Assembly (NCBI GenBank): GCA_963735925.1 | Contig: CAVTMT010000003.1 | Location: 1,767,463-1,831,462, forward strand | Direction: 5' to 3' | Origin: an uncultured bacterium | Lineage (GTDB): Bacteria > Verrucomicrobiota > Verrucomicrobiia > Limisphaerales > J093 | Length of the DNA stretch: 64,000 bases | Part shown: positions 30,061-45,710 of the stretch, piece by piece | How the letters are laid out: every line of letters starts with the position of its first letter | Position numbering within the stretch: position 1 is the first letter of the stretch | Position numbers and translations under genes: made by a program | The notes under the pieces: generated by a model | The model's database searches: none | Seen by the model: the letters and a program-made list of their open reading frames with translations, nothing else | Told to the model about the DNA's origin: nothing

Positions 30061-30341
30061 GGCGGGCGTCGCGCCGACCGACCCGCAACCGGCACTGACC
30101 AGGTGGACCGGCCGGCAGGCAAAGGCGCGGACTTTTTCGGCCGGAGGTCGCAGGCGCGCTGGGCGGAGGAGGCCGAGGTGACCGCTCCCGCAGCGGTACA
30201 ACCCAACGACGGTCCGGGACCGGACGCTGCTGGGTCCCGACCGCGGCACGCTACAAACCCATCAGGACGGTGTAATTGTCCGCCGGGGCGCATTCGCGTT
30301 TGCTGGCCGCGGTTACGAAACCGCAACGGATCAAGACGACT

Positions 30342-30578
30342 ATGAACACTGCCTGCTTTGGTTTTCTGGAACTGCTCGTCGCTCTGCCGTTCATGGCCCT
30401 GGGCCTGCTCGGCTTCGCCTTCTGGGTGTGGATGCTCGTCGATTGCGCCGTGAACGAGCCCAGCCAGGGCAGCGACAAGATCGTGTGGGTTCTCGTGGTC
30501 CTCTTCGCAAACTTCATCGGCGCGCTGATCTACTTCTTCGTGCGCCGGCCGCAACGCCGCGCCGCGCTGGGCCGGTGA
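30342..30578 (+). CDS. PLDc_N-domain small membrane protein (78 aa)
   Basis: WVWMLVDCAVNEPSQGSDKIVWVLVVLFANFIGALIYFFVRR matches the PLD-nuclease N-terminal domain mini-protein pattern (WML.D…K..W.LVI.F…G…Y). The ATG at 30342 was confirmed. Confidence 0.7.
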   Translation: MNTACFGFLELLVALPFMALGLLGFAFWVWMLVDCAVNEPSQGSDKIVWVLVVLFANFIGALIYFFVRRPQRRAALGR

Positions 30579-30647: not shown

Positions 30648-31199
30648 ATGACATTTTACGCCTTCTGCCTGGTTGGTGGTCTGCTCTTCACGATCTTCAG
30701 TGTCGCGCTCAGCCATTTCCTGGGCGGCCACAACACGGACCTGGACGCGGGCAACCATCCCGATGCGGGCGCCAACGACGCCGGCCTGCCGACGATGTCG
30801 TTTTCGAGCCCCACCGTGCTGGCGTCCTTTGTGACGGCGTTTGGGGCGTTTGGCCTGATCTTCAGCAAAATCGAACTGACGAGCAGTCCCTGGATCAGCG
30901 CCCCGCTGTCGGCTTTGGGAGGTCTGGCCATCGCGCTGGCCACGCTTTGGTTCTTCACGAGGCTCTTCCAGGAAACGCAGAGTTCCAGCGAATCGCGCGT
31001 GGGCAGCCTGACCGGCATCACCGCAACGGTCATCACGCCGATCCCGGAGCAGAGCGTCGGTGAAATCGCCTACGTCCAGGCCGGCTCGCGCTACACCGCG
31101 CCGGCCCGAGCCGAGCAGAATGTCGCCCTCGCCGCGGGTGTATCGGTGATTATCACCCGCGTAGTGGGCACCCAGTTTTACGTCAAAGCGGCCCCGTGA
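30648..31199 (+). CDS. NfeD-family membrane protein (flotillin-associated, OB-fold C-terminus)
   Basis: N-terminal multi-TM segment followed by a C-terminal beta domain (GSLTGITATVITPIPEQSVGEIAYVQAGSRYTAPARAE…VIITRVVGTQFYVK). It lies immediately upstream of the flotillin gene. Confidence 0.75.
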   Translation: MTFYAFCLVGGLLFTIFSVALSHFLGGHNTDLDAGNHPDAGANDAGLPTMSFSSPTVLASFVTAFGAFGLIFSKIELTSSPWISAPLSALGGLAIALATLWFFTRLFQETQSSSESRVGSLTGITATVITPIPEQSVGEIAYVQAGSRYTAPARAEQNVALAAGVSVIITRVVGTQFYVKAAP

Positions 31200-31235: not shown

Positions 31236-32765
31236 ATGAACGTCTGCTCTTCGCTGCTCGCCGCCGTGCCCTGGTCATCCGTCACCGCCAGCGCGGCCAC
31301 CGTCCTGGTCGTCTTCTTCCTTTTCGTGGTCCTCTGGGCCAGCCGCTATCGAAAGGTCGGTCCGAACGAGGTCCTGGTGATCTCCGGCCGCAAACGCCAA
31401 CTCACCGAGGCCGACGGCACGAGCCGCGACGTCGGTTACCGCATCGTCAAAGGCGGCGGTGTCTTCGTCTGGCCGGTGCTCGAGAAGGTGGACGTGCTGC
31501 GGCTCGAGTTGATGACCATCGACGTACAGACGCCAGAGGTCTATACCAGCAAAGGCGTGCCGGTGAAGGTGGACGGCGTCGCGCAGATCAAGGTCAAGGG
31601 CGACGATGTTTCCATTGCCACCGCTGCCGAGCAGTTTCTGAGCAAGGGCGTCGAGGAGATCAAGAACATCGCCATGCAGACGCTCGAAGGGCATCTGCGG
31701 GCCATTCTTGGCACCATGACCGTCGAGGAGATCTACCAGAATCGCGACGCCTTCGCCTCGAAGGTGCAGGAAGTCGCGGCGGGCGACATGGCCAACATGG
31801 GCCTGGGCATCGTCAGCTTCACCATCCGCGACATCCGCGACAGCCAGGGGTACCTCGACGCGCTGGGCAAGCCGCGCATCGCCCAGGTCAAACGCGACGC
31901 CGTCATCGCCCAGGCCGAGGCGGATCGCGATTCGACGATCCGCTCGGCCCAGGCGCAGCAGGCGGGCCAGGAAGCCAAGCTTGCCGCGGACAGCAAGATT
32001 GCCGAGGCCCAACGTGACTACCAATCGAACGTCGCCCAATACCAGGCGGTGGTGAACCAGAGGAAGGCCGAGGCCGACCTTGCTTACGACTTGCAGAAGT
32101 TCAAGACCGGCCAGCTCGTGAAGGCCGAGGAAGTCCAGGTCGCGATCGTCGAGAAGCAGAAGCAAATCGAGTTGCAGCAACAGGAAATCCTGCGCCGGCA
32201 GCGCGAGCTCGAAGCGACGGTTCAGAAGCCCGCCGACGCCGAACGGTACAAGGTCGAAACCCTTGCCAACGCGCGGAAGTTCCAGCTCGAAACTGAGGCG
32301 GCCGGCACCGCGTCCGCGGCGAAAGCGACGGGCTTCGCCAGCGCAGACGTAGCCAAGGCCACGGGCATCGCCGAGGCCGAAGCCAACCAGGCACGGGGTC
32401 TGGCCGAAGCCGCGGTCATCGAAGCGCAAGGCAAGGCCACCGCCGAAGCCATGCGCGTCAAGGCCGAATCGTTCAAGCAATACAACGAGGCGGCGGTGAT
32501 CGAGATGATTGTCCGCATCCTGCCCGAAGTGGCGGGCAAGGTGAGCGAGCCGTTGGCGAAGACCGAGAAGATGGTCATCATCAACAGCGGCAGCGGCCCG
32601 GGCGGCGGAGCGAGCAAGCTCACGGGCGACGTCATGCAGATCATTTCCCAGCTCCCGCCCGTGGTGGAAAGCCTGACCGGCATCAAGTTCGAGAAACTGC
32701 TCGAACAGGTGCCCGCCCTCCGCCAGGCTATGGGTAAATCCAACGATCAACCCCCCATTCCCTAA
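31236..32765 (+). CDS. flotillin family protein (SPFH/Band-7 domain, FloT-like)
   Basis: N-terminal membrane anchor, SPFH core (YRKVGPNEVLVISGRK…VDVQTPEVYTSKGVPVKVDGVAQIKV), then a long Ala/Glu/Gln-rich coiled-coil (the flotillin EA repeats). Confidence 0.88.
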   Translation: MNVCSSLLAAVPWSSVTASAATVLVVFFLFVVLWASRYRKVGPNEVLVISGRKRQLTEADGTSRDVGYRIVKGGGVFVWPVLEKVDVLRLELMTIDVQTPEVYTSKGVPVKVDGVAQIKVKGDDVSIATAAEQFLSKGVEEIKNIAMQTLEGHLRAILGTMTVEEIYQNRDAFASKVQEVAAGDMANMGLGIVSFTIRDIRDSQGYLDALGKPRIAQVKRDAVIAQAEADRDSTIRSAQAQQAGQEAKLAADSKIAEAQRDYQSNVAQYQAVVNQRKAEADLAYDLQKFKTGQLVKAEEVQVAIVEKQKQIELQQQEILRRQRELEATVQKPADAERYKVETLANARKFQLETEAAGTASAAKATGFASADVAKATGIAEAEANQARGLAEAAVIEAQGKATAEAMRVKAESFKQYNEAAVIEMIVRILPEVAGKVSEPLAKTEKMVIINSGSGPGGGASKLTGDVMQIISQLPPVVESLTGIKFEKLLEQVPALRQAMGKSNDQPPIP

Positions 32766-32770
32766 CCGGC

Positions 32771-33007
32771 ATGGTCCACCACATGGATACTTCCTGGGCG
32801 CTCGGCGGCCTCATTGCATCCGCCTTCGGCGCGGTGTTCGCGCTGGCCGCCTTCGCGTTCTGGCTGTGGATGCTCATCCACGCCATTCAGAATCGCGGCC
32901 TCACGGATTCGGAGCGCATCGTCTGGGTGCTGGTGATCATCTTCCTCAACCTCCTTGGCGCCTTGCTTTACCTGATCGTGGGCAAACCCAAGGCACCGGG
33001 GGGTTAG
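32771..33007 (+). CDS. PLDc_N-domain small membrane protein (78 aa)
   Basis: FAFWLWMLIHAIQNRGLTDSERIVWVLVIIFLNLLGALLYLIVGKPK. It starts 6 nt after the flotillin stop. Confidence 0.7.
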   Translation: MVHHMDTSWALGGLIASAFGAVFALAAFAFWLWMLIHAIQNRGLTDSERIVWVLVIIFLNLLGALLYLIVGKPKAPGG

Positions 33008-33032: not shown

Positions 33033-33299
33033 ATGATCACTACCATGACTCCACTCTTTGGATTCCTCTTCGGCGGTTTCGAACTGCTCCTGCTGCTGTT
33101 CCTCTTTCCCTTCACCCTCGCGCTCTTCGCGTTCTGGATCTGGATGCTCATCCATGCGATCCAGAACCGGGGTCTCACCGACTCCGAGCGCATCGTCTGG
33201 GTGCTCGTCATCATCTTCCTGCACGCCCTGGGTGCCCTGCTCTACCTGCTGATCGGCCGGCCCAAGGCAAACAACCTCCTGACGCCACCGAGGACTTGA
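33033..33299 (+). CDS. PLDc_N-domain small membrane protein (88 aa), recent tandem duplicate of 32771..33007
   Basis: FAFWIWMLIHAIQNRGLTDSERIVWVLVIIFLHALGALLYLLIGRPK. The 27-aa core is identical to that of the preceding gene. Confidence 0.7.
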   Translation: MITTMTPLFGFLFGGFELLLLLFLFPFTLALFAFWIWMLIHAIQNRGLTDSERIVWVLVIIFLHALGALLYLLIGRPKANNLLTPPRT

Positions 33300-33451: not shown

Positions 33452-34681
33452 ATGAACGAGCGCCGCTTTTGCTATTTCGATCATAACGCCACGACTGCAG
33501 TCGCCCAGGAAGTCCTGGATGCCATGCTGCCCTTCTTCCGCGAGCACTGGGGCAACCCCTCGAGCGCGTACGCCTTCGGTCACGACGTCGCCCGCCACCT
33601 GGAGACCGCCCGCGCCCAAGTGGCGGCGCTGATCGGCGCGGAACCGCGCGAGGTTTTGTTCACCAGTTGTGGCACCGAAAGCAACAACGCCGCCTGGAAC
33701 AGCGCGTTGACGACCCAGCCGGACCGGCGCCACGTCGTCACCACGGCAGTCGAGCATTCCGCCAACCTCAAGTTCGCCCAGACCCTGCAGCGTCGGGGCT
33801 GCGAGGTGACCTCCCTGCCGGTGAACCCGGACGGCCAACTCGATCTGCACCAGCTCGAACAGGCGATCCGGCCGGATACCGCACTGGTTTCGGTGATGTG
33901 GGCGAACAACGAAACCGGGGTCCTGTTCCCGATCCCGGAGGTGGCGGCCATTTGCCGAAGCAAGGGGGTGCTGTGCCATACGGACGCCGTGCAAGTGGCC
34001 GGCAAGGTTCCCCTCGATGTCCGGGAAGCGGGGGTGGATTTCCTGTCGCTCAGCGGGCACAAGCTCCATGCCCCGAAGGGCATTGGCGCCCTATACGTGC
34101 GACGGCGAACGCGGTTCGCGCCTTACCTGGTCGGGGGCCACCAGGAGCGCGGCCGGCGTGGCGGCACCGAGAACGTACCGTACATCGTGGGTTTCGGTCG
34201 GGCGGCGGACCTGGCGGTGGCGCTTCTGGGTCCGGAAACCCATCGGGTGCGGGCGCTGCGCGACCGGCTGGAGTCCGGCCTGCTGGCAACGATTCCTCAA
34301 GCCGCCCGCAACGGCGCCCGCGAGCCGCGCCTGCCGAACACCAGCAACCTCGCCTTCCCGGCGGTGGAAGCGGAAGCGATGCTGATGCTGCTCGACCAGT
34401 TGGGCATCTGCGCTTCCGGCGGTTCGGCCTGCATGACGGGTTCGCTGGACCCCTCTCACGTGCTGACCGCAATGGGCTTCAGCGCGACGCGGGCACGGGG
34501 CAGCCTCCGCTTCAGCCTCGGTCGGGACACGCACGCGGGCGACGTGGATTACCTGCTCGCCACCCTGCCCGGCGTCGTCAGCAAGCTGCAAGCCATCGCG
34601 CCCGCGGGTCCGGCGCCACGGGCGCCACGCGCACCGGTGGGCGCAGCCGCGGAGTTGTCGGGCGTTCAGAACGTGAACTGA
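33452..34681 (+). CDS. cysteine desulfurase family aminotransferase class V (NifS/IscS-like)
   Basis: FDHNATT, SGHKLHAPKGIGALYVRR (PLP lysine) and the active-site loop ASGGSACMTGS. The ATG at 33452 was confirmed. The 3' end overlaps the convergent porin gene by 16 nt. Confidence 0.85.
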   Translation: MNERRFCYFDHNATTAVAQEVLDAMLPFFREHWGNPSSAYAFGHDVARHLETARAQVAALIGAEPREVLFTSCGTESNNAAWNSALTTQPDRRHVVTTAVEHSANLKFAQTLQRRGCEVTSLPVNPDGQLDLHQLEQAIRPDTALVSVMWANNETGVLFPIPEVAAICRSKGVLCHTDAVQVAGKVPLDVREAGVDFLSLSGHKLHAPKGIGALYVRRRTRFAPYLVGGHQERGRRGGTENVPYIVGFGRAADLAVALLGPETHRVRALRDRLESGLLATIPQAARNGAREPRLPNTSNLAFPAVEAEAMLMLLDQLGICASGGSACMTGSLDPSHVLTAMGFSATRARGSLRFSLGRDTHAGDVDYLLATLPGVVSKLQAIAPAGPAPRAPRAPVGAAAELSGVQNVN

Positions 34682-36150
34682 ACCTCGGCGCGCAGGAAAC
34701 TCTCCACGTCGCGCTGGCTGTAGTAATCTCCCTGCCAGACCCATTCGCCCCAGAGATGGCCGGCGATCTGTTTGCTGAACTGGTGCTTGAGGACCAGTTG
34801 CAGGTAGTGACCGCGGAAGTTGCCCTCGTCGGTGAACCGGGAGGCATTGAGCGTGCGGGTGGGATCGGACTGCGGTGCAAAGAGGGCGTTGTAATAGGCG
34901 CCCACCGTCATGTCCTTCATCGGGTTGAGGGTCCAGCCGGCGCCGAGGCGCTGGATATTGTTCAACTGGGCCACCTTCCCCCCCGTTTCCTGGACATAGG
35001 AGTAAATGTACAATTCACTCCACCGCGGCCACCGGCCCCAGAGGATGTCGAACATCTCGTCCTTGCCCGGCGTGCTCCCGTCGTCGCCCGAGAGGTACTC
35101 GAAGATAAGATGCGCCTGGTTGTTGAGCGGGTCGCGCAACAGATAGTTCAGGCTGGCGTTCGCGCCGAACGCGTCCATGTCCCGCATCTGGGTCGCGGCC
35201 ACCGGGTATTTCACCGTGGGGTCTTCCTTGCGTCCGAACTGATACGCTCCTTCGAGGGAGTAGCTCCAGTGCATCGCGGGCGTGCCGGTGAGTTTGCCGC
35301 CCACGGTATAAATGTCCGCATTGTCGCCATTGGCCAGTTCGCGGTCGTCGTGTTTGTAGATGAAGTAGCCGTCGAGCTGGGTGTTCTTGATGGACTTGTT
35401 CGAGGCATAGAAGATGCCCCCCTGCTCGTTCTGTTCCGTGAGGGCGACGTGCTGGTTGTTGATCGTCGGAATCCACTCGTCGGCATACGCGTTCTGATAG
35501 ATGCCGATGAAGTCGAGTTTGGTCTTCGCGGCCTTCAGATCGTAGGTCACCCGCGCACTGTCGAGGAAGTAGGTCCAGGAACCGTCCAGCGGTGTGCCGT
35601 CGGCGACGAGCCACCAGTTCCAGAAATCGCCCAGGACAATGTCTTGGCGGCCGGCGGCGACCGTCAGCGGTTGGTCCAGCACATTGGCCCACTTCACGTT
35701 CAGGCTGTCGGCCATGCCGTAGCGCCACTCCATGCCGGTTTGATTCTTGTAGGTCCCGACGAAGGCGGGCTCGAGCCATTCCCGCGGTTCGGCGGCAAGC
35801 CGGGCATTGACGGTCACATTCGTCACCGGCGTGACGGCCGTCCACAATCGCGCCCGAAAACGGATGACGTCCTGGGCGTGGTTGGGCAGGTCGTTACCCA
35901 GGGTGATGAGGTTGTCGTAGTACTCGTTGCGAATCCGCAGGTCGGCCCCCCACGAGAGCCAGGGCGTGGGATTCTTCACGTCCTTGATCCACTGCTGCGT
36001 GGCGCTGAGTTTGGGGGCGGCCGGCGCCCCCGCGGCGGGGGTTGCGGGCATTGCGGGTGAGGAAATGGAGGCCGACTGACTGTGGCCGGGAAGCAGCCCG
36101 GCGGTCAGTGCCAGGCCGGTGAGGAGCGAGCGTTGCGGAGTTTTTTTCAT
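34666..36150 (-). CDS. outer-membrane beta-barrel protein, alginate-export (AlgE-like) family
   Basis: Signal peptide MKKTPQRSLLTGLALTAGLLPGHS. There are alternating amphipathic beta-strands with aromatic girdles and a C-terminal …AEVQFTF ending in Phe. Confidence 0.7.
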   Translation of the reverse strand: MKKTPQRSLLTGLALTAGLLPGHSQSASISSPAMPATPAAGAPAAPKLSATQQWIKDVKNPTPWLSWGADLRIRNEYYDNLITLGNDLPNHAQDVIRFRARLWTAVTPVTNVTVNARLAAEPREWLEPAFVGTYKNQTGMEWRYGMADSLNVKWANVLDQPLTVAAGRQDIVLGDFWNWWLVADGTPLDGSWTYFLDSARVTYDLKAAKTKLDFIGIYQNAYADEWIPTINNQHVALTEQNEQGGIFYASNKSIKNTQLDGYFIYKHDDRELANGDNADIYTVGGKLTGTPAMHWSYSLEGAYQFGRKEDPTVKYPVAATQMRDMDAFGANASLNYLLRDPLNNQAHLIFEYLSGDDGSTPGKDEMFDILWGRWPRWSELYIYSYVQETGGKVAQLNNIQRLGAGWTLNPMKDMTVGAYYNALFAPQSDPTRTLNASRFTDEGNFRGHYLQLVLKHQFSKQIAGHLWGEWVWQGDYYSQRDVESFLRAEVQFTF

Positions 36151-36182
36151 GGAGGTTAGGGGGCTGAACCGTCACGGGAAAG

Positions 36183-38126
36183 TCAGGCCTTGCCTTCGAC
36201 TTTGGCTCGATCAAAGCAGGTCGCCAGGTGTTGCGCGTCGTTGGGGCGGGTAAAGGCGCTGACCAGCACCGCCGTGAGCAGCGAGAGCGGCAGTCCGATG
36301 AACAGCGGATCGACCACCGGCCAGTTGGGAGATTGCGCCAGCAGGCTGGCCTTGACCACGCCGATCACCGTGCACTCCGGCGTCTTCACGAACACCAACC
36401 AGACCGTGCTGGCGATGAAACCGACGAGCATCGAGGCGATGGCCGCCGGCCGGGTCATGCGACGCGTGAAGATGCCGCCGAAGAACGCCGGGAGAAACGT
36501 CGAGGCGCACAGACCAAAGAAGATGGCGGTCGCCCGGGCGATGATGCTCACGACGAACTGCTCCTTCTTGGCGTAATAGCCGATCAGCACCGCCAGGACC
36601 AAACCGATCAGGATGGCGAAGCGGACGATGTAGATGGTCCGGTCCGGGGCGCCTTTGGCTTGGGCGCCAGTGAGGGTCCCAAAGACGTCGCGCCCGGCCG
36701 CGGTGCCAAGGGTGTGGAACTGGCTGGAAAGCGTGCTCATCGCCGCGGCCAGCAGCGTGAGCAGAAAGACCAACCCGAACCATTTCGGCATCGCCGTGGT
36801 GATGTACAGCGGGATGATCTGGTCCGAAGCGCCCTTGGCATTGACGATGGCCAGCGAACGGCCTTGCGCCACCTGGTTCGGTGCCGCGACTCCGGACAGG
36901 TAGGGTTGGTTCTGGTCGAGGACGGCCGGCACGAGACTGCCTTCATGAATGACGCCCAGGCTGTTGGTTTCCTTGACCACCGGGAGCCATTTGCCGTCGG
37001 CGCCGAGCTTTACGGGTTGCGTGCCGGCCACGGTCTTGCCGTCCTTGGCCGTGTCCTTGACCAGGTCCACCCAGTTGCCGTCATCGCCCTTCCGCATCAA
37101 TTGCAGGATCGCGTGGCCTTTGTCGGCATTGACGGTCTTGAGCACGCGCCCCTGGAAGAGCGGACCGTGCTGCGTGAAGTAGGCGTTCGAGAGCGCGCCG
37201 GTGGTGAACGCCACGCCCGTCATGGCCAGGATGAACACGCCGCCCACGCCGACCGCGCGGTTCAACTCGCGCTTGCTCTTCACCGTCATGAACCGCACCG
37301 CCAGTTGCGGTTGGGCCAGCACGCCGATCCCGACGCCCATGACGATGGTCGAAACGACGATCCACCAGAGGTTGTACTTGGTCGCGCCGAAGCCGAACTC
37401 CGGCATCGCCGTCCAGCCGCGATGGCCAATCGCCGTGAGCGTGGCGGGGGTCAGATCCGCCAGGTCAGTCAGCGCTTGGTGTCCCGCCGTCACGCCGCCA
37501 ACGCTCGCGTAGGTGTACACGAGCAGGACTGCCATGCCGACGAACATGATCACGCCCTGCAAGGCGTCGGTGTACATCACACCTTTAAGGCCGCCAAAGA
37601 AGACATAGGCCGCCACGATCGTCGCGAAGAGCAGCAGCGCGGCGTTGTAGTCCATCTGGAACGTGGTGGCGATGAACTCGGTGCCGCCGATCAGCACGGC
37701 CGCGCCATACAACGGCATGAACAACACAATGACCGCACCGCAAAAGACCTGGATAAACCGGCTTTGGTACCGCCGGCCGAGCAACTCAGGGAACGTGTGC
37801 GCGTCCAGCCGGTGCCCGAGCGCGCGGGTCGGTCCGCCGATGAAGATGAACGCGATGAAGATCCCGATGAAGATGTTGCAGAACGTGAGCCAGAGCAGGC
37901 TCAGGCCGAACGTGCCGGCCACGCCGCCGAAACCCACGATGGCGCTGGTGGAGATGAAGGTCGCGCCGTAGCTGAGCGACATGACGAACGGATGCACCTT
38001 GCGCCCTGCCACCAAGTAATCCGTGGCGGTCTTCGTCCCGCGGTACCCCAGCCAGCCCAGGTACGCGGTCACGAACAGGTAGAGCAGGACGACGAGGATG
38101 TCGAGGAGCGCGACTTCGGCAAACAT
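36183..38126 (-). CDS. sodium:solute symporter (SSS) family transporter with about 130-aa hydrophilic insertion (paralog 2 of 2)
   Basis: SSS hallmarks (DYLVAGRKVHPFVMSLSYGATFISTSAIVGFGG; GLKGVMYTDALQGVIMF). A K/D/G-rich soluble insertion (HGPLFQGRVLK…SDQIIPLY) lies between TM blocks. The gene is 647 aa. Confidence 0.85.
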   Translation of the reverse strand: MFAEVALLDILVVLLYLFVTAYLGWLGYRGTKTATDYLVAGRKVHPFVMSLSYGATFISTSAIVGFGGVAGTFGLSLLWLTFCNIFIGIFIAFIFIGGPTRALGHRLDAHTFPELLGRRYQSRFIQVFCGAVIVLFMPLYGAAVLIGGTEFIATTFQMDYNAALLLFATIVAAYVFFGGLKGVMYTDALQGVIMFVGMAVLLVYTYASVGGVTAGHQALTDLADLTPATLTAIGHRGWTAMPEFGFGATKYNLWWIVVSTIVMGVGIGVLAQPQLAVRFMTVKSKRELNRAVGVGGVFILAMTGVAFTTGALSNAYFTQHGPLFQGRVLKTVNADKGHAILQLMRKGDDGNWVDLVKDTAKDGKTVAGTQPVKLGADGKWLPVVKETNSLGVIHEGSLVPAVLDQNQPYLSGVAAPNQVAQGRSLAIVNAKGASDQIIPLYITTAMPKWFGLVFLLTLLAAAMSTLSSQFHTLGTAAGRDVFGTLTGAQAKGAPDRTIYIVRFAILIGLVLAVLIGYYAKKEQFVVSIIARATAIFFGLCASTFLPAFFGGIFTRRMTRPAAIASMLVGFIASTVWLVFVKTPECTVIGVVKASLLAQSPNWPVVDPLFIGLPLSLLTAVLVSAFTRPNDAQHLATCFDRAKVEGKA

Positions 38127-38129
38127 GGT

Positions 38130-40049
38130 TCAGGAGGGTTGGGGGTTGAAGCACCGGGCCAGGTGAGCGGAAGCCGGCGGGCGAGTGGCCAGACTCACCA
38201 ACACGGCTGTCAGGGCAGAAAGCGGCAAGGCAATGAGCACCGGGTCCACGACCGGCCAGTTGGGATGCGCTTCGAGCAGGCTGGCCTTGACCAGGCCGAT
38301 GGCGCCGCACTCCGGGGTCTTGACCAGCGCGACCCACGCCAGGGTCGCGCCGAAGCCGACCAGCATCGAAACGGTCGCACCCGCCTTGGTCATCCGCGGC
38401 CAGTACAGGCCGCCGATGAGCGCCGGCAGAAACGCCGCGGCGCACATGCCGAAGAAAATGGCCGTGGCCCGGGCGATGATGTACTCGCCCCGCGCATAGT
38501 GGCCGATGCCCACCGCCACCACCAACCCGATCAGGATCGCGGTGCGCACAATGAGTATCGTCCGGTCGGGCCCGCCGCCACCACCCATCCGACCGAACAA
38601 CTGTTGGTAGATATCGCGTCCGGCCGCCGTGCCCAGGGTGTGGAACTGGCTCGACAACGTGCTCATCGCCGCCGCCAGCAGCGTCAGCAGGAAGACCAGG
38701 CCGAACCATCTGGGCATCGCCGCGCCGATGTAGGTGGGAATGATCTGGTCCGAGTTGCCCTTGGCCGCGACGATCGAAATGCTCCGGCCGCTCACGACTT
38801 CGTTCGGCCCAACGCGCACCGGAAGGCGGCCCGCGTCCAGCAACGCAGGAATTACCGCACCTTCGCGCACGACTCCCAGATGGTTGGTCTCCCTGGCCAC
38901 GGGCAGCCAATGTCCGGCGGCGTCCACCAGCGGCTCTTGGAGCACGTTGGTCGTGCTGGCGCCGACGGTTTCCTTGACAACGTCGAGCCACTCGCCGGCG
39001 GCGTTGCGGCGCATCAACTGGAGCAACGCGTGCGGGCGCTGATCGCCGAGTTTCTGCAATACCCGCCCCTCGAACACCGGGCCGTGCAGTGCGAAGAAGA
39101 CGTTCGAGAGCGCGCCGGTGGTGTACGCCACTCCCACCATCGCCAGGATGAACACCGCGCCGACGCCGACGGCTCGGTTCAGCTCGCGCCGGCTCTTCAC
39201 GGTCATGAAGCGGACGACCAGTTGCGGCTGCGCCAGCACTCCGATGCCCACGCCCAGCACGATGGTCGAAACGACGATCCACCAAAGGTTGTACTGTCGG
39301 TCGCCGAAGCCGAACTGCGGCATCGCCGTCCAGCCCCGGTGCCCGATGGCCGCCAGGTTCGCCGGCACCAGGTCGGCGAGCCCGGTCAGTTGTCGGTGGC
39401 CTTCGACCACCCCGCCGACGCGCGAGTAGGTGGTGACTAGCAGCACGGCCATTCCCGCGAACATGATGACCCCCTGCAACGCGTCGGTGTACATCACACC
39501 CTTCAGACCGCCGAAGAACACATAGGCGGCCACGATGCCGGCCAGCGTCAGGAGCGCCGCGTCGTACGGGATCTGAAGGGCGGTCGTGATGAATTCGGTG
39601 CCGCCGATCAGCACCGCGGCCCCGTACAGCGGCATGAACACGGCGATCACCAGCGCCGTGAACACCTGGAGAAACCGGCTTTGGAAGCGCCGCCCCAGCA
39701 ATTCGGGAAACGTGTGCGCGTCCAAGGCGTGCCCCAACCGACGGACGCGGGCGCCCAGAAACACGAAGGCGATAAGGATGCCGACGAAGATGTTGAACAC
39801 CACCAACCAGAGCAGGCTCATCCCGAACAGACCGGCCACGCCGCCGAACCCCACGATGGCGCTGGTGGAAATGAAGGTTGCGCCATAGCTGAGCGACATC
39901 ACGAACGGATGCGCTTTGCGTCCGGCCAGCAAATAGTCCGACGTGGTCTGTGTGCCGCGGTAGCCCAGCCAGCCGAGGTAGGCCGTTGCCGCGAGATAAA
40001 GCAGCACGACGGCGACATCGAGGAGCGGGACTTGAGCCAGGCAGGGCAT
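38130..40049 (-). CDS. sodium:solute symporter (SSS) family transporter with about 130-aa hydrophilic insertion (paralog 1 of 2)
   Basis: About 70 % identical to the downstream paralog. Only 3 nt separate its stop from the next start, and it has the same inserted domain (HGPVFEGRVLQ…SDQIIPTY). Confidence 0.85.
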   Translation of the reverse strand: MPCLAQVPLLDVAVVLLYLAATAYLGWLGYRGTQTTSDYLLAGRKAHPFVMSLSYGATFISTSAIVGFGGVAGLFGMSLLWLVVFNIFVGILIAFVFLGARVRRLGHALDAHTFPELLGRRFQSRFLQVFTALVIAVFMPLYGAAVLIGGTEFITTALQIPYDAALLTLAGIVAAYVFFGGLKGVMYTDALQGVIMFAGMAVLLVTTYSRVGGVVEGHRQLTGLADLVPANLAAIGHRGWTAMPQFGFGDRQYNLWWIVVSTIVLGVGIGVLAQPQLVVRFMTVKSRRELNRAVGVGAVFILAMVGVAYTTGALSNVFFALHGPVFEGRVLQKLGDQRPHALLQLMRRNAAGEWLDVVKETVGASTTNVLQEPLVDAAGHWLPVARETNHLGVVREGAVIPALLDAGRLPVRVGPNEVVSGRSISIVAAKGNSDQIIPTYIGAAMPRWFGLVFLLTLLAAAMSTLSSQFHTLGTAAGRDIYQQLFGRMGGGGGPDRTILIVRTAILIGLVVAVGIGHYARGEYIIARATAIFFGMCAAAFLPALIGGLYWPRMTKAGATVSMLVGFGATLAWVALVKTPECGAIGLVKASLLEAHPNWPVVDPVLIALPLSALTAVLVSLATRPPASAHLARCFNPQPS

Positions 40050-40106
40050 AATCGTGGCCGACGCCGTCGGCGAACGGAGTCGGGCGGGCCGGCGGACCGG
40101 GCCGGC

Positions 40107-40277
40107 CTAAAGTTTCTCCTCGAGTTTGTCCTCGACCTTGGCCCAGCGGACATCGTCCGCCCGGACTGAATCGTCCCCCCGGTTCCAATTGCGCCAGCTA
40201 TAAATGACGCAGGCCAGAGCGCTCACGAGGCAGAGCACGTAAGCCAGCCACACCCACGGATCAGGAATTCCCAACAT
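40107..40277 (-). CDS. small single-TM membrane protein (56 aa) preceding the SSS transporters; possible SSS accessory subunit (DUF3311/DUF4212-like)
   Basis: MLGIPDPWVWLAYVLCLVSALACVIYSWRNWNRGDD…. An AAAGGA Shine-Dalgarno-like motif lies 9 nt upstream of the ATG at 40277. The family assignment is tentative. Confidence 0.5.
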   Translation of the reverse strand: MLGIPDPWVWLAYVLCLVSALACVIYSWRNWNRGDDSVRADDVRWAKVEDKLEEKL

Positions 40278-40291
40278 CACAGAGTCCTTTC

Positions 40292-40732
40292 TCAGGCTGC
40301 CAGGCGCCGGAACAACTCGACTTCTCCCACCACGTTGACGCCGGCCTGGCGGAGCGCCTCCACCGCCGGGTCGGGCCGATCGAACCGAAAAACCAGCAGG
40401 CCTTTGTCGCCCTGCTTCAGCGTGAAGGCGTACATGTACTCGACGTTCACGCCGGCCCGCTCGAACACCTCGAGCAGTTCGGCCAGGCCGCCGGGCTTGT
40501 CCGCGACCTCCACCGCCACCACCTCGGTGACCTTGACCACGCACCCCTTCGCCTCGAGCAGTTGCTTGGCCTGCGCCCAGTCGCGCACCACCACCCGCAG
40601 GATGCCGAACTGCTGGGTGTCGGCCAGCGACAGCGTGATGAGGTTGATGCCGGCCGCGCCCAGCCAACGGCACGGCGCGCTGAGCGTGCCCGGACGGTTT
40701 TCGAGGAAGATGGAGAGTTGCTTGAGTTTCAT
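40292..40732 (-). CDS. ACT-domain protein (tandem ACT)
   Basis: MKLKQLSIFLENRPGTLSAPCRWLGAAGINLITLSLAD… and a second ACT-like half. This is the typical partner of ior/paaK gene sets. Confidence 0.75.
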   Translation of the reverse strand: MKLKQLSIFLENRPGTLSAPCRWLGAAGINLITLSLADTQQFGILRVVVRDWAQAKQLLEAKGCVVKVTEVVAVEVADKPGGLAELLEVFERAGVNVEYMYAFTLKQGDKGLLVFRFDRPDPAVEALRQAGVNVVGEVELFRRLAA

Positions 40733-40757
40733 GGCGCCGGCTCCGGGTTAACCCCGT

Positions 40758-42086
40758 TCACAGTTTCCGCTTGTCGATCACGCGCTTGGCCTTGCCCTCG
40801 CTCCGCTGGAGGGTATGCGGCTCCACCAGGCGCACCTGGGCCCGCAGGCCGGTGATGCGCTCGATGGCCTGCGAGAGCCGTTGCTGGAGTTTCTCCAAGG
40901 CGCCCACCGTGTCGCTGAAGAACTCCTCGGTGACCTCGACCTGGACCTCCATTTCGTCGAGCCCCTTCACGCGATCGACGATGATCTGGTAATGCGGCAG
41001 CGTGCCTTCCACGGCCAGCAACGCCGCCTCGATCTGCGACGGAAACACGTTCACGCCGCGGATGATCATCATGTCGTCGGTCCGGCGGGCGATGCGCTTG
41101 ATGCGGCGCAGCGTCCGGCCGCAGGCGCAGGGCTCCTCGTTCAAGGCGCTGATGTCCCGCGTGCGGTAACGGATCATCGGCATGGCGCGTTTGCAGAGCG
41201 TGGTGAGCACCAACTCGCCCTCGGTGCCGTCCGGCACCGGTTGGCCGGTTTCGGGCTCGATGACCTCCGGATAAAACATGTCTTCGAAAATGTGCGGCCC
41301 CGCCTGGTGCGGACACTCCATCGCCACGCCCGGCCCGATGATCTCGCTCAGGCCGTAGATGTCGTACGCCTTGAGGTTGGTCTCCGCCTCGATGCGCCGC
41401 CGCATCGCTTCGGTCCAGGGTTCGGCGCCGAACACGCCGGCCCGCAGCGGGAGTTGCTTCAGGTCCACGCCCAGTTCGCCGGCGCGTTCGGTGAGGTGGA
41501 TGAAATAGCTCGGCGTGCAACAGATCGCGGTCACGCCAAAATCCTTCATGATCATGATCTGGCGGTCGGTGTTGCCGCCGGAGATTGGAATCACGCTGGC
41601 GCCCAACGCCTCAGCCCCGTAATGCGCGCCCAGGCCGCCGGTAAACAAGCCGTAACCGTACGCGTTCTGGATGATGTCGCCGCGGTGCAGCCCGCAGGCC
41701 AGGAAGCTGCGCTTCATCACCGTCGCCCAGTCATCGACGTCCGCCTGCGTGTACGCCACCACGATCGGCTTCCCGGTGGTGCCGCTCGAAGCGTGGAACC
41801 GGACGATTTCCTCCGTGGGGCTGGCGAACAGCCCGAACGGGTAGGTGTCGCGCAGATCCGTCTTGGTCGTGAACGGCAGCCGCGCCAGGTCGTCCAGCGA
41901 TTGGAGATCGGCCGGCCCGAGGCCGCGCTCCTCCAGGCGCCGGCGGAACAAGGGGACGCGGTCGTACGCGCGCTGGACGATCGTCCGGAGCCGGTGCAGT
42001 TGGAGCGCGCGCAATTGCGGCAGCGGCAGAAAGTCCACCGCGCTGGCGGGATCGAACGGGCCGGTGCAATTCGTCTTCGAATTCAT
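40758..42086 (-). CDS. phenylacetate--CoA ligase family protein (PaaK-like arylacetate/acyl-CoA ligase)
   Basis: AMP-binding motif [19 protein letters not shown], and a PaaK-family C-terminus. The start MNSKTN… is confirmed at 42086. Confidence 0.88.
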
Positions 42087-42094
42087 GGCGGAAA

Positions 42095-42589
42095 TCAGGC
42101 GGGGGGCTGGCCACCGCTGCCGAGGGCGAAGGCCTTCAAGTTCGCGGCCAGGAGCGCGGGGCCGAAACTCGCCGCCAGGGCGGCACGCCAGCATTCCGCG
42201 GGGACGCCTTCCAGGTGGCGGCTCAGCAGGCCGATCATGGCGACGTTGAAACTGCGTTTGTTCTCGAGCTGGCCCACATCAATCATCGACGGTTCGAGCA
42301 ACACGCCGCCCGGCCGCAGGTAACCGCGGTTGTTCTCGAGTTGGTCCGGCGCGAGCACGACCAGGTAATCCGCTTCGCCGAAAGGCACCATCGGGCTGAA
42401 CACCTTTTCCCCGAAGCGCACGTCGCTGTTCACCGAACCGCCGCGCTGGCTCATGCCGTGGACTTCGGCCTTCTTGACGTCGAACCCGGCCCGGAACACC
42501 GCGTTGGCCAGAATGTCCGACGCTTTCAGCACGCCCTGGCCTCCCAGGCCGGCCACTACGACACTGGTAACGCTGTTTCGCATGCGCAC
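42095..42589 (-). CDS. iorB: indolepyruvate/2-oxoacid:ferredoxin oxidoreductase subunit beta (IorB, POR-gamma-like)
   Basis: [21 protein letters not shown]…, a POR gamma-domain signature. Confidence 0.85.
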
Positions 42590-44208
42590 TCGCTCTCCGC
42601 CTCGACGGCCTGGCGTTCGTACTCCTTGAGTTGTTTGGCGATCAGAATGCAGGGCCGGCGAACGATGATCACCGCCAGTTCGCCGCTGTTCAGGCAGTCG
42701 GTCAAAACCCGCCCGAATTCGTCGGAGCCCAGCCGCGGCTCCACGACCTCCACCCGGCGAATGCCCAGGCCGCGGGCCAGGTCTTCGAACCGTACGCGCC
42801 CGGTCGCCTGATGGTCCAACGTGCGGCCGGTGCCGGGATGCTCCTGGTGCCCGGTCATCGCGGTGGTCGAATTGTCTAGGATGATCAGCACGTGGCCGCC
42901 CGGCGGCGGGTTATAGACCATCTCCACCAGGCCGCTGATGCCGCTGTGCACGAACGTGCTGTCGCCGATGATGCTCACCACCCGCTTCGCCTGGTCGGGC
43001 GGCAGGACGTGCCGCAGTCCGAGTCCGACGCCGAGGCTCGCCCCCATGCACACGCAGGTGTCCATCGCCTCGAACGGGGCCAGTGCCCCCAGCGTGTAAC
43101 AGCCGATGTCGCCCGCGACAATCGCCTGCATTTCGTGCAGCGTGCTGAACACCTGGCGGTACGAGCACGCGTCACAGAGCTGCGGCGGCTTGCCCGGCGG
43201 CCGGACCGGCTCGGCCGAAGTGTCGCCCGCGAGGATGCGGCGCACCCGTGCCACGTCGAATTCGCCGTACCGGTACATCTCCGCCTTGCCTTCCACGGCG
43301 ATGCCCGCGGCGCGGATGGCGTCCAGCAGGTACGGGTCGCCTTCCTCAAGCACGAAGCAACGTTGTACGAAGCCCGCGAACGACCGGATCAACTCCAGCG
43401 GCAACGGGTGGGTCATGCCGAGCTTGAGCACGCTGGCGGCCGGGGCGGCGTCGCGGGCATGGGCGTAAGCCACGCCGGAGGCGATGATGCCCAGTTCCCG
43501 GCCCGCCTCGAAAACCCGGTTGAGCGGAGCGGTCTCGTTCCAGGCCGCGATCTCGGTCAGCTTCCGGCGTAATCGCCGGTGGGCCGCGCGCGCATAGGCG
43601 GGGATCATCACCCGGCCACGCACATCGCGCACGAACGACGCCGGTTTCAAGCCTTCCACCGGCGGTCCCGGCCGCACCACGCTTTGGCTGTGGCAAACCC
43701 GCGTCGTGACCCGGAACAGGACCGGGATCTGCCACTTCTCGGAAATCTCGACCGCCTGCAAAAAGAAATCGTACGCCTCCTGCGAATCGCCCGGCTCAAG
43801 CATCGGCACCCCCGCCGCGACCGCGTAACGGCGGTTGTCCTGTTCGTTCTGGCTCGAGGCCATGCCCGGGTCGTCCGCGGAGATCACGATCAGCGCGCCG
43901 GTCACGCCCGTGTAGGCCACGGTGAAAAACGGATCGGCGGCGACGTTGAGTCCGACGTGTTTCATCGTGGCCAGCGCCCGCGCCCCCCCGTAGGCCGCGC
44001 CAATGCAAACCTCCAAGGCAACCTTCTCGTTCGGGGACCATTGGGCGTGTCCGCCCACGCGCGCGAAGTTCTCCAGGATTTCCGTGGACGGCGTGCCGGG
44101 ATAGCCGGCGCCGAGCGCCACGCCGGCGTGTTTCGCCGCCAGGGCGATGGCCTCGTTGCCACTGAGCAAACGCCGCTCTCCGTCTTGGTCTGCCGGACTC
44201 ATGGACAT
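42556..44208 (-). CDS. iorA: indolepyruvate:ferredoxin oxidoreductase subunit alpha (IorA), apparently lacking the C-terminal 2x[4Fe-4S] ferredoxin domain
   Basis: LSGNEAIALAAKHAGVALGAGYPGTPSTEI and the TPP motif IIGDSTFVHSGISGLVEMV. The start MSMSP… is confirmed at 44208. The protein ends …[34 protein letters not shown] with no CxxCxxCxxxCP pairs. The 3' end overlaps iorB by 34 nt. Confidence 0.85.
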   Translation of the reverse strand: MSMSPADQDGERRLLSGNEAIALAAKHAGVALGAGYPGTPSTEILENFARVGGHAQWSPNEKVALEVCIGAAYGGARALATMKHVGLNVAADPFFTVAYTGVTGALIVISADDPGMASSQNEQDNRRYAVAAGVPMLEPGDSQEAYDFFLQAVEISEKWQIPVLFRVTTRVCHSQSVVRPGPPVEGLKPASFVRDVRGRVMIPAYARAAHRRLRRKLTEIAAWNETAPLNRVFEAGRELGIIASGVAYAHARDAAPAASVLKLGMTHPLPLELIRSFAGFVQRCFVLEEGDPYLLDAIRAAGIAVEGKAEMYRYGEFDVARVRRILAGDTSAEPVRPPGKPPQLCDACSYRQVFSTLHEMQAIVAGDIGCYTLGALAPFEAMDTCVCMGASLGVGLGLRHVLPPDQAKRVVSIIGDSTFVHSGISGLVEMVYNPPPGGHVLIILDNSTTAMTGHQEHPGTGRTLDHQATGRVRFEDLARGLGIRRVEVVEPRLGSDEFGRVLTDCLNSGELAVIIVRRPCILIAKQLKEYERQAVEAESECACETALPVS

Positions 44209-44221
44209 CGTTGGACTCGTA

Positions 44222-44698
44222 TCATTGCCTTGCCTTGAGCGCCCTCGGGAGCGCGGCGAACCGTTCCCGAAACCACGCCGGTGGCCGGATCGCCCGCCCG
44301 TCACGGTCGGCAAAGGCGTGAATCGTGCATCCGCGCACCACGCCCTTGCGGGTCTCGACCTGCAGAATCTCGACGTCGGTCCGCACGCGCGCCCGGCCGG
44401 CGAAACCGAGCGTCGTCGTCATCTCCAGCCAGTCGTCGTACCGCGCCCGACCGAGGTACTCGACCTTGGCTTCGACCAAAGGGAGGAACAGCCCCCGCTC
44501 CTCGAGTTGAGCGTACGGCAGATCGAGGCTGCGCAGCAGTTCAGTGCGCCCCATCTCGAACCATTCCAGCGGGCGCGAGTTGTAGAACGTCCCCATCTGA
44601 TCGGTCTCGCTGTAGCGCACCCGGAATCGGAGACTGTGCCGGGGCGACGCCACACCGGGACGCAACGCGTCGGTCGGGGCAGGCGTCGTGCTTGACAT
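44222..44698 (-). CDS. acyl-CoA thioesterase, 4HBT/YbgC-like hotdog fold
   Basis: …RFRVRYSETDQMGTFYNSRPLEWFEMGRTELLRSL… is the YbgC-type N-terminal signature. It is the first gene of the ior operon. Confidence 0.78.
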   Translation of the reverse strand: MSSTTPAPTDALRPGVASPRHSLRFRVRYSETDQMGTFYNSRPLEWFEMGRTELLRSLDLPYAQLEERGLFLPLVEAKVEYLGRARYDDWLEMTTTLGFAGRARVRTDVEILQVETRKGVVRGCTIHAFADRDGRAIRPPAWFRERFAALPRALKARQ

Positions 44699-44933
44699 GC
44701 ACGAAATTGAGCCCTCTCCAGGCGACGGCGACTACCACGGGCTTGGCCATTTCTTAGCAGATTTTGCCGTGTGAACGGCGCCGCTTGACGCCGCCGCGCA
44801 GTCCATTCCGTCGGCCAGGAGGCGGGGGGCGTTCGGCCCGGCCGGGTCCGGGCTAGGCGACGGTGGTTTTCATTTCGCGAAATCGTCATTGCAATTGCCC
44901 GGGCCCCACGGCAACGTCTGCCCCGCGAATCGT

Positions 44934-45011
44934 CGGGGCGTAGCGTAGCCTGGCTAGCGCGCTTGTTTCGGGTACAAGAGGTCGTGAGTTCGAATCTCAC
45001 CGCCCCGACCA
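44934..45011 (+). tRNA. tRNA-Pro (anticodon CGG), CCA encoded
   Basis: Hand fold: acceptor CGGGGCG/CGCCCCG with discriminator A and CCA. D-stem GCGT/GCGC. Anticodon stem CTTGT/ACAAG with loop TTCGGGT, giving CGG with G37. T-arm AGGTC? GTGAG-TTCGAAT-CTCAC. Total length 78 nt. Confidence 0.85.
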
Positions 45012-45149
45012 TTCTCCGCCGGGGCAGACCGGCAGGCCCGGCTGCAGCGGTGCATCCCACCTTTGGCGGGCGGGCGGCGACAAGAAGTTGAACCGCGACC
45101 CGGCCAGCCTGGCACACGGACGCAATGGCGATTTCCAGACGTGGCGAGC

Positions 45150-45710
45150 ATGAACAAGCTGATCCTGAATCTGTCCGTGGTGCTTTCGTTCGCGCTGTGC
45201 GGGCTGTGCCTGGTACAGTGGAAGCGGGAGGCCAATCTCACCCACGACAAATCCAAGCTCACCGAGGACGTGTACACGAACAAGGTGGTCATTCAGCAAT
45301 TGGAGATCACCCTGAAGCGCACCCAGGATGAGGTTAAGCGTCTGGAGGGGATCCGCACCGGGCTCGAACAGACCGTCGAGACCAACACGGCCAAGATCAA
45401 GGCGCTCTCGGAGGAACTCGCCGACACAATCCAGGACCGGGACGAAAAGCGTAACCAGGTGGAGCAGTTCAAGACCGCGTTCGAGCAGGCCAACGAGAAT
45501 ATCAAGACGCAGAACGAGGCGATCCTCAAACAAAACGAGATGCTGAAGACCGTCGCCGAACAACGCGACCAGCAGATCGAGGAGTACAAGAAGCTGCTCG
45601 AGAAGTACAACCAGGTGGTCGGCGAGTACAATAAACTCGTCGATGAGGTCAAGAAGGCGAACGAAGCCATCGAAGCGGCCGCGCAGAAATCGCCGGGCTC
45701 CAAGAAATGA
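45150..45710 (+). CDS. membrane-anchored coiled-coil protein (186 aa)
   Basis: N-terminal TM (LILNLSVVLSFALCGLCLV) followed by about 150 aa of K/E/Q-rich heptad-like sequence. Local GC is about 57 %, lower than the surroundings, which tracks the amino-acid bias. Confidence 0.6.
   Translation: MNKLILNLSVVLSFALCGLCLVQWKREANLTHDKSKLTEDVYTNKVVIQQLEITLKRTQDEVKRLEGIRTGLEQTVETNTAKIKALSEELADTIQDRDEKRNQVEQFKTAFEQANENIKTQNEAILKQNEMLKTVAEQRDQQIEEYKKLLEKYNQVVGEYNKLVDEVKKANEAIEAAAQKSPGSKK

Follow-up and report, generated by a model that had tools for sequence, protein, structure and literature searches.

The 64,000-nucleotide stretch of contig CAVTMT010000003.1 analyzed here (assembly GCA_963735925.1, from an uncultured bacterium of the Verrucomicrobiota), referred to as a whole as the window, carries on its minus strand two adjacent genes for sodium:solute symporter (SSS) family proteins, each interrupted by an inserted domain that, in sequence comparisons, matches nothing described, and preceded by a gene for a 56-aa membrane peptide. 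The downstream copy, SSS_a (647 aa, 36183..38126), and the upstream copy, SSS_b (639 aa, 38130..40049), are both intact open reading frames (ORFs) with matches to PF00474, and SSS_a is predicted to form 13 transmembrane (TM) helices. Full-length alignment by BLASTP gives 444 identical residues out of 639 (69%), and the genes are separated by 3 nt (TGA-acc-ATG), a spacing that suggests translational coupling. These values agree with the original prediction, made from the letters of the window, of two neighboring SSS genes approximately 70% identical and 3 nt apart, and all the conserved anchors that it quoted around the extra segment are found in the alignment, namely HGP(L/V)F(Q/E)GRVL, A(I/L)LQLMR, W(V/L)D(L/V)VK(D/E)T, WLPV..ETN..GV..EG...PA.LD and SDQIIP(L/T)Y. 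Delimited on the translations and, for SSS_a, on the strands of an AlphaFold2 (AF2) model, the insert comprises residues 321-432 of SSS_a (112 aa, 36831..37166) and residues 323-431 of SSS_b (109 aa, 38757..39083), somewhat less than the approximately 130 aa first estimated. A 1070-aa ORF on the plus strand (36228-39440), antisense to both SSS genes in DNA of 65% GC, was rejected as a gene.

The membership of both proteins in the SSS family is seen from PF00474 (SSF), which scores 168.3 bits for SSS_a and 175.6 bits for SSS_b (cutoff 22.8) and whose match the insert divides into two parts after approximately residue 345. The generic superfamily model TIGR00813 reaches 175.6 and 181.8 bits, just below its cutoff of 184, and is followed, as the next-best NCBIfam match, by the PutP model TIGR02121 with 171.8 and 172.8 bits (cutoff 515.5). 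The ActP/MctC models TIGR02711, NF006903 and NF058657 give only partial matches of 31-69 bits, with cutoffs of 670-1099, and the VC_2705-type model TIGR03648 gives 105 bits (cutoff 320.75), the neighboring peptide being a member of NF045580 and not of DUF4212. No NCBIfam equivalog cutoff (PutP, PanF, ActP, MctC or VC_2705) is reached by either symporter. The full-length AF2 model of SSS_a, built on an alignment of 82 homologues, contains 13 long helices (mean predicted local distance difference test score, pLDDT, 83.8; predicted template modeling score, pTM, 0.82), and Foldseek matches it to SGLT2, SGLT1-MAP17, SiaT, NIS, CHT1, SMCT1 and vSGLT with E-values down to 4e-16; against SGLT2, SiaT and NIS the model gives E-values of 1e-16 to 1e-13.

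The Na2 and Na3 sodium sites used for comparison are those defined in SiaT (PMC5931594). In a phmmer alignment, A461, S464 and T465 of SSS_a, on the helix that corresponds to LeuT TM8, fall on SiaT A339, S342 and S343 (Na2), and S467 and S468 fall on S345 and S346 (Na3), whilst D187, which likewise matches the Na3 site, belongs to a conserved TD motif shared, in alignment, with SGLT1 and SMVT. All these SSS_a residues are invariant in the 82 homologues. Conservation of the Na2 and Na3 residues thus points to Na+ coupling, probably with two Na+ carried per substrate, and on the evidence of sequence and model SSS_a and SSS_b are best described as paralogous Na+-coupled LeuT-fold importers of a distinct SSS subfamily.

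In the SSS_a model the insert lies between the helices 285-320 and 448-486, i.e., in the loop that connects TM8 and TM9. With the insert left out, the SSS_a loops assigned to the cytoplasm hold 14 lysines and arginines (K+R), as compared with three in the loops assigned to the periplasm; this bias, together with the N-terminus-out topology of SSS proteins, places the insert in the periplasm, within extracellular loop 4 (EL4) of the LeuT fold. The topology analysis that had been proposed for the insert therefore yields a modeled location in the periplasmic TM8-TM9 loop, and a cytoplasmic regulatory domain is ruled out on the same grounds. SSS and other LeuT-fold transporters are textbook models of alternating access, with EL4 as their outer gate. 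For PutP, control of the periplasmic entrance by this loop (eL4) is indicated by the entries for Raba 2014 and Bracher 2016 as listed in PMC7918813.

The insert of SSS_a is all-beta, with seven strands between residues 323 and 424 of the full-length AF2 model, and the same seven strands are obtained when it is folded alone on a 52-sequence alignment (pLDDT 91.8, pTM 0.82). It is thus predicted to be an autonomous folded domain and not a disordered loop, disorder being one of the outcomes that the original prediction had named as speaking against its proposal. Neither the SSS_a insert nor representatives of the other insert types described below match any Pfam family, even at E <= 10; the insert is also without an NCBIfam match, and its fold has no neighbor in PDB. 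Together with the missing equivalog-level match of the transporters, this bears out the initial impression that the segment is foreign to characterized SSS proteins. When a profile of the insert was searched by HMMER against 1.84 billion representative proteins, 23 proteins were retrieved at E <= 0.001, of which approximately two-thirds look like SSS proteins, either complete or in fragments (both of those that were read, P0127 and P0141, are). A set of long proteins (P0132-P0138 and P0143) was rejected as a source of relatives, these matches being judged artefacts of repeats or composition from the two that were read (P0132 and P0133); P0132 matches the profile via a repeated hairpin-like stretch 'KGYAVLNV..NGTW'. 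This 1271-aa protein is made up of about 20 tandem units of approximately 60 aa with 'INEKGYAVLNVSGKQPNGTWF', which are weakly similar to strands 2-3 of the type A insert. As the profile finds only SSS proteins, their fragments and a few repeat proteins, the domain appears to be restricted to this SSS clade.

The most interesting result of this analysis is an unusual contrast between a variable insert and the near-frozen core that carries it. We compared, at the insert site, 82 full-length SSS homologues from the 79 best genome loci (L001-L079). An insert is present at the same TM8-TM9 site in 82 of 82, with lengths of 59-145 aa, so that an extra segment, noted earlier in the two window copies, is carried by every full-length homologue considered. 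By sequence the inserts sort into at least four types, A to D, that cannot be aligned with one another (the type counts include eight sequences assigned by eye). Type A, to which this window belongs, is found in Verrucomicrobiota, Planctomycetota and two proteobacterial metagenome-assembled genomes (MAGs) and measures 67-117 aa. Type B (92-145 aa) occurs mostly in Planctomycetota (Sedimentisphaerales, Pirellulales and Phycisphaerae), with a few Verrucomicrobiota and Lentisphaerota; type C (96-97 aa) in Lentisphaerota, Kiritimatiellia, some Verrucomicrobiota and Hydrogenedentota; and type D (69 aa) in Spirochaetota. No profile-profile relationship is found between types, the hhalign probability being at most 24.5%, a value that comes from the last strand only. 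Identity between inserts of different types is 11-17%, whereas core identity to SSS_a ranges from 57 to 83% across the homologues.

What can be aligned in all types are two strands, the first one beyond TM8 and the final one ahead of the EL4 helix, which suggests, at the level of sequence, a conserved two-strand stem carrying a variable head. Type A has five invariant positions across 82 sequences, namely G321, G326, W352, P400 and R423. Part of the length variation stems from an additional beta-hairpin of approximately 35-40 aa, located in SSS_a at around residues 358-399 (36930..37055, boundaries approximate, from alignment gaps and AF2 strands) with strands at 365-371, 393-396 and 398-403; it is found in all the Verrucomicrobiota-labeled members shown and in a few others, and is missing from the insert versions of 73-99 aa, including those labeled Phycisphaerae or Planctomycetota. 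Since a single MAG carries both a type A (L032) and a type C (L074) copy, the insert types behave as paralogous lineages. A neighbor-joining (NJ) tree of the core, computed without support values, groups C and D into single clades and leaves A and B partly intermixed, and thus favors neither rapid divergence nor replacement of the head. The net charge of the inserts follows no consistent trend across the types. In type B, several inserts (L030, L027, L038, L046 and others) share a conserved H(I/V/L)D-T-x-G-D-G-x-x-D motif, similar to a DxDxDG calcium-binding loop, which would be in keeping with a domain outside the cytoplasm, and the type D inserts hold two cysteines.

The same contrast is seen between the two window copies, which are 47% identical in the insert and 76% in the membrane core. 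Counted on the BLASTP alignment, TM2, TM7 and TM9 are near-identical (27/28, 30/33 and 32/39 residues, respectively). By our own count the SSS_a insert contains ten lysines and three arginines and the SSS_b insert three lysines and nine arginines, as expected from the lysine-rich versus arginine-rich character originally ascribed to them. Orthologues of SSS_a reach 78-91% identity, and SSS_b has orthologues of its own (P0094, 87%; P0075, 81%; P0098, 77%). Because the latter are 77-87% identical to SSS_b, the pair reflects an older paralogy rather than a fresh duplication; of the tandem duplication proposed at first, the adjacent paralogous pair stands. Tandem or double SSS copies are also present in Kuenenia and a few other genomes.

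The gene for the 56-aa single-TM peptide (40107..40277, minus strand) lies 57 nt upstream of SSS_b, with a Shine-Dalgarno-like element, AAAGGA, 7 nt before its ATG. Both the gene and the suggestion that its product may be an accessory subunit had been put forward from the sequence, and the latter agrees with the 'symporter small accessory protein' model NF045580 (69.4 bits, cutoff 35, profile positions 1-33 of 33) and with PF28215 (Symport_access), an assignment precomputed for 25 homologues and for an identical copy of the gene on a public contig. The peptide family is therefore already catalogued and is not a discovery, although our literature search on the peptide retrieved no paper. It adjoins the SSS gene in 73 of the 79 related loci, and in two of the six exceptions the SSS gene sits at a contig edge, which leaves 73 of 77 informative loci; in most of the 73 it is immediately upstream of the SSS gene, with a gap of typically 10-130 nt. 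Conservation is strong over the entire peptide, its acidic tail included, throughout the clade and with all insert types. No peptide was detected in four loci with ample upstream sequence, three from Sedimentisphaerales/Phycisphaerae (L041, L042 and L053, which group together in the core tree) and one from Brocadiia (L074), where it may have been lost or relocated. The word-index search for peptide homologues returns close relatives only and is uninformative on distant partners. Note also that the public 90% identity cluster of the peptide includes, even as its representative, 475-aa tetratricopeptide-repeat proteins from Parabacteroides, which looks like a clustering artefact.

These three genes form part of a tightly spaced series of nine on the same strand, in the order thioesterase, iorA, iorB, paaK, ACT, small peptide, SSS_b, SSS_a and porin. 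The first gene encodes a hotdog-fold acyl-CoA thioesterase (44222..44698; PF13279, PF03061), and is followed by genes for proteins similar to the alpha subunit (42556..44208, start probably the ATG at 44208; TIGR03336, PF02775, PF01855) and the beta subunit (42095..42589; NF005322, PF01558) of indolepyruvate:ferredoxin oxidoreductase (IOR), a PaaK-type aryl-acid (phenylacetate)-CoA ligase (40758..42086, start probably the ATG at 42086; TIGR02155, PF14535, PF00501) and a protein with a pair of ACT domains (40292..40732; PF19571 ACT_8, 98.5 bits). The last gene codes for a candidate outer-membrane channel of the Alginate_exp/AlgE-like kind (34666..36150; PF13372, 48 bits). Inside the cluster we found no promoter-like or terminator-like signal above the shuffled expectation. 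A tRNA-Pro (CGG) gene at 44934-45011, just upstream on the opposite strand, bounds the thioesterase-to-porin cluster. Beyond the porin, on the plus strand, lie three paralogous genes for small PLDc_N (PF13396) membrane proteins (30276-30578, 32771-33007 and 33033-33299; 47, 42 and 40 bits), which flank genes for an unassigned membrane protein of 183 aa (30648-31199) and for a Band_7/flotillin protein (31236-32765).

The architecture of this region is far beyond chance and recurs in hundreds of genomes; two clade-specific peptide motifs match at least 583 species-representative genomes. The best 79 loci come mostly from Verrucomicrobiota, Planctomycetota (including anammox Brocadiia and Kuenenia) and Lentisphaerota/Kiritimatiellia; the remainder are some Hydrogenedentota and Spirochaetota/Leptospiraceae, and two MAGs of Proteobacteria (Hydrogenophilales and Thiodictyon). 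The recurrent order is peptide, SSS, AlgE-like porin, IorA, IorB, PaaK and ACT, often with a second PaaK-ACT pair. Most of the related loci (L008, L011, L012, L017, L020 and many more) have two paaK-like matches in series downstream of the porin, usually each followed by ACT, which are approximately 52-77% and 44-54% identical to the window PaaK; this serial arrangement suggests two acid specificities. The cluster studied here (window positions 34,400-45,200) has only one paaK-ACT pair. The thioesterase gene also adjoins iorA in L027 and L031 and is near a paaK-ACT pair in L002. Sorted by insert type, a porin lies directly downstream in 19 of 28 type A loci, 10 of 21 type B loci, 1 of 15 type C loci and none of 3 type D loci, and Ior or PaaK is nearby in 19/29, 10/21, 3/12 and 0/3, respectively, the type C neighborhoods being hard to read owing to spurious high-GC ORFs. 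As to the idea that the insert defines a clade always found beside ior/paaK genes, the insert does mark a clade, but the adjacency is frequent rather than constant.

The substrates of SSS_a and SSS_b are probably arylacetates, e.g., phenylacetate, 4-hydroxyphenylacetate or indoleacetate, an assignment that follows from the gene context only, i.e., from the presence in one cluster of an AMP-forming PaaK-type ligase, an IOR-type 2-oxoacid:ferredoxin oxidoreductase, ACT proteins, a hotdog thioesterase and an outer-membrane protein resembling an anion channel. Reductive carboxylation of arylacetates to arylpyruvates for the synthesis of aromatic amino acids is established in rumen bacteria and methanogens. 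The enzymes of the window have the correct domain architectures, and their best matches all stay below the cutoffs, with scores of 535 bits for IorA (TIGR03336, cutoff 651), 143.8 bits for IorB (NF005322, cutoff 237) and 569 bits for PaaK (TIGR02155, cutoff 646). In Clostridioides difficile, an AMP-forming ligase linked to an IOR-like oxidoreductase of the pyruvate:ferredoxin oxidoreductase family, with putative arylpyruvate specificity, takes phenylacetate, (4-)hydroxyphenylacetate and indoleacetate, whereas the ATP-yielding oxidative branch uses a (phospho)transferase and a kinase instead of a ligase (PMC13285125). The presence of a ligase rather than a transferase and kinase thus makes the combination of importer and ligase fit uptake and activation of arylacetates. 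Our literature search for the ior/paaK/SSS cluster and for reductive carboxylation of aryl acids in these phyla returned nothing specific.

Taken together, we favor, with a probability of roughly 55% for the reading as a whole, a Na+-coupled arylacetate uptake system in which the gate loop of the transporter bears a variable periplasmic cap and the transporter has a dedicated peptide. The AlgE-like channel of the cluster would let arylacetates pass the outer membrane, and SSS_a and SSS_b would import them together with Na+ across the inner membrane. The PaaK-type ligase would then activate them, and the IOR-type oxidoreductase would reductively carboxylate the activated acids to arylpyruvates for aromatic amino acid synthesis, unless they enter other metabolism. 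The insert most likely serves as an enlarged cap, or lid, above the entrance for the substrate on the periplasmic side, a role assigned by position; it would move with EL4, tune access or gating, and possibly touch a periplasmic or outer-membrane partner. As the peptide is near-invariant across all head types, it probably contacts, as a dedicated single-TM subunit, the conserved membrane core or its cytoplasmic face and not the head.

Several points weigh against this interpretation. The substrate is read solely from the gene neighborhood, and since none of IorA, IorB and PaaK reaches its equivalog cutoff, their specificity may be another one and it is uncertain precisely which acids are used. 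Loci of types C and D seldom have ior/paaK or a porin nearby, and our literature search retrieved no experiment on any member of the clade. The placement of the domain over the vestibule comes from the identity of the modeled loop and not from coordinates, and the orientation predicted for the peptide, N-terminus out and acidic C-terminal tail in, comes from the positive-inside rule alone. Finally, type-specific binding functions and weak constraint would each explain the hypervariable head equally well.

The first of these two options, that the head forms a built-in module for substrate capture and selectivity, i.e., a fused analogue of a periplasmic binding protein whose types, and whose two window copies, would specify different acids, appears unlikely to us. 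It could account for the concentration of the differences between SSS_a and SSS_b in the insert, on a transport core that is almost identical, for paralogous head lineages that coexist in one MAG and for gene contexts that differ between the types; R423, invariant in type A and mostly R, H or K in type B, could meet a carboxylate. However, this arginine is not kept in types C and D, the inserts show no consistent charge signature or likeness to a known ligand-binding fold in PDB or to a Pfam family, and types A and B share the porin/ior/paaK context despite heads that cannot be aligned. We do not think that the insert acts as a conserved ligand sensor, since a near-identical core with unalignable inserts argues against one conserved ligand-binding function, while leaving room for type-specific ones. 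If SSS_a and SSS_b differ functionally, the head is the obvious candidate, the substrate-binding helices being almost identical. We also consider, as a tentative and rather doubtful extension, that the EL4 beta domain is an exchangeable periplasmic specificity module, whose conserved stem of two strands would attach a variable head to the outer gate of an otherwise frozen Na+ symporter core, each head capturing a different substrate or docking a different envelope partner, for instance the AlgE-like channel; if true, a secondary transporter would here possess, besides its own single-TM subunit, an integral receptor domain able to evolve.

The second option, a tolerated loop expansion under weak constraint with a structural role only (stability of the fold or of an oligomer), is in our view quite improbable. 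The broad length range, the unalignable heads on a highly conserved core and the failure of the insert-profile search to detect a homologue elsewhere are what such an expansion would leave behind, but none of the 82 full-length homologues is without the insert, the fold prediction is confident, and it is the gate loop, not a peripheral one, that carries the domain. Conservation within types is also considerable, as illustrated by the invariant G, W, P and R residues of type A and by the fixed length of type C.

Finally, we regard it as distinctly improbable that the domain docks onto a partner in the periplasm or outer membrane (the AlgE-like channel or the cell wall) to give a coupled trans-envelope uptake route. 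The head type does correlate with the downstream porin, and the type B motif (HIDTxGDGxxD) resembles a kind of Ca2+-binding loop typical of extracytoplasmic proteins. Against this, the periplasm is wide compared with a domain of about 110 aa, the correlation may simply track phylogeny, no partner was identified, and the porin is missing from approximately one-third of the type A loci with enough downstream sequence.

A widespread subfamily with a predicted folded domain in the gate loop and a conserved small peptide would be a natural experiment on the elaboration of a gate loop and on the role of small SSS subunits. The peptide–SSS–porin–IorAB–PaaK–ACT cluster suggests scavenging of arylacetates in Planctomycetota, Verrucomicrobiota and their relatives, phyla with many lineages from sediments or anaerobic habitats in which the physiology of transport has hardly been studied. 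Should the domain prove to be no more than a structural cap, what was found would shrink to a better annotation of a large group of proteins now called 'sodium:solute symporter family protein'.

Several known systems share features with the one described here. PutP, the Na+/proline symporter of Escherichia coli, is like SSS_a and SSS_b a 13-TM protein of the SSS family with its N-terminus outside. The A..ST motif of TM9, which matches the Na2 residues of SiaT, is presumably equivalent to PutP S340/T341. The gating loop eL4 of PutP corresponds to the site of the insert (PMC7918813). In PutP, however, this loop is short, by our estimate approximately 30 residues with helices, as compared with a loop of about 127 residues holding a predicted seven-stranded beta domain in SSS_a. 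Nor does PutP have a dedicated small subunit, and the substrate of the window transporters is very probably not proline.

Among PDB sequences, only the sialic acid:Na+ symporter SiaT of Proteus mirabilis (PDB 5NV9) matches the C-terminal half of SSS_a; it is also a top fold match, albeit only about 15% identical; the residues of both its Na2 and Na3 sites are conserved in SSS_a, and its substrate is a carboxylate. Differently from SSS_a, it has 496 aa, a short EL4 and no accessory peptide, and an equivalent of its substrate-binding Arg135 appears to be absent, as reading the sequence reveals no arginine in SSS_a residues 123-155 (LeuT TM3).

The closest solved structures to the SSS_a model are those of human SGLT1/SGLT2 with MAP17 (Foldseek E 4e-16, TM-score approximately 0.65-0.72). 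They likewise combine an SSS transporter with a small single-pass protein, and their enlarged, structured extracellular loops act as a lid. The SGLT lid is built from several disulfide-bearing loops, in contrast to one inserted beta domain in the window proteins, and SGLT substrates are sugars. MAP17 and the 56-aa peptide have no detectable homology, and we infer that the peptide could do for its transporter what MAP17 does for SGLT1/2. To our knowledge, MAP17-SGLT2 is the only structurally defined case of an SSS transporter with a small subunit.

Among bacteria, SSS transporters with small companions comprise the VC_2705 family with DUF4212, ActP with YjcH (DUF485) and PanF with YhdT. As in the window, the gene for the small membrane protein is located ahead of, and co-transcribed with, that for the SSS permease, and ActP- and VC_2705-type substrates are carboxylates; the window peptide nevertheless belongs to another family (NF045580/PF28215). 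We know of no VC_2705-, ActP- or PanF-type transporter with a beta domain in EL4.

A parallel to the cluster, likened by description, is the phenylacetate uptake system of Pseudomonas putida, in which the SSS permease PhaJ and the porin PhaK are encoded together with a phenylacetate-CoA ligase; the window cluster similarly combines an SSS permease, a putative dedicated outer-membrane channel and a predicted phenylacetate-CoA ligase. PhaK is, however, of the OprD type and not AlgE-like, the PhaJ system is without a small peptide or known insert, and the downstream route in P. putida is aerobic (paa ring epoxidation) and does not involve IOR. What is undescribed in comparison with all these systems is a hypervariable, predicted beta domain in the outer-gate loop of an SSS transporter, which provides a clean testable case rather than a new principle.

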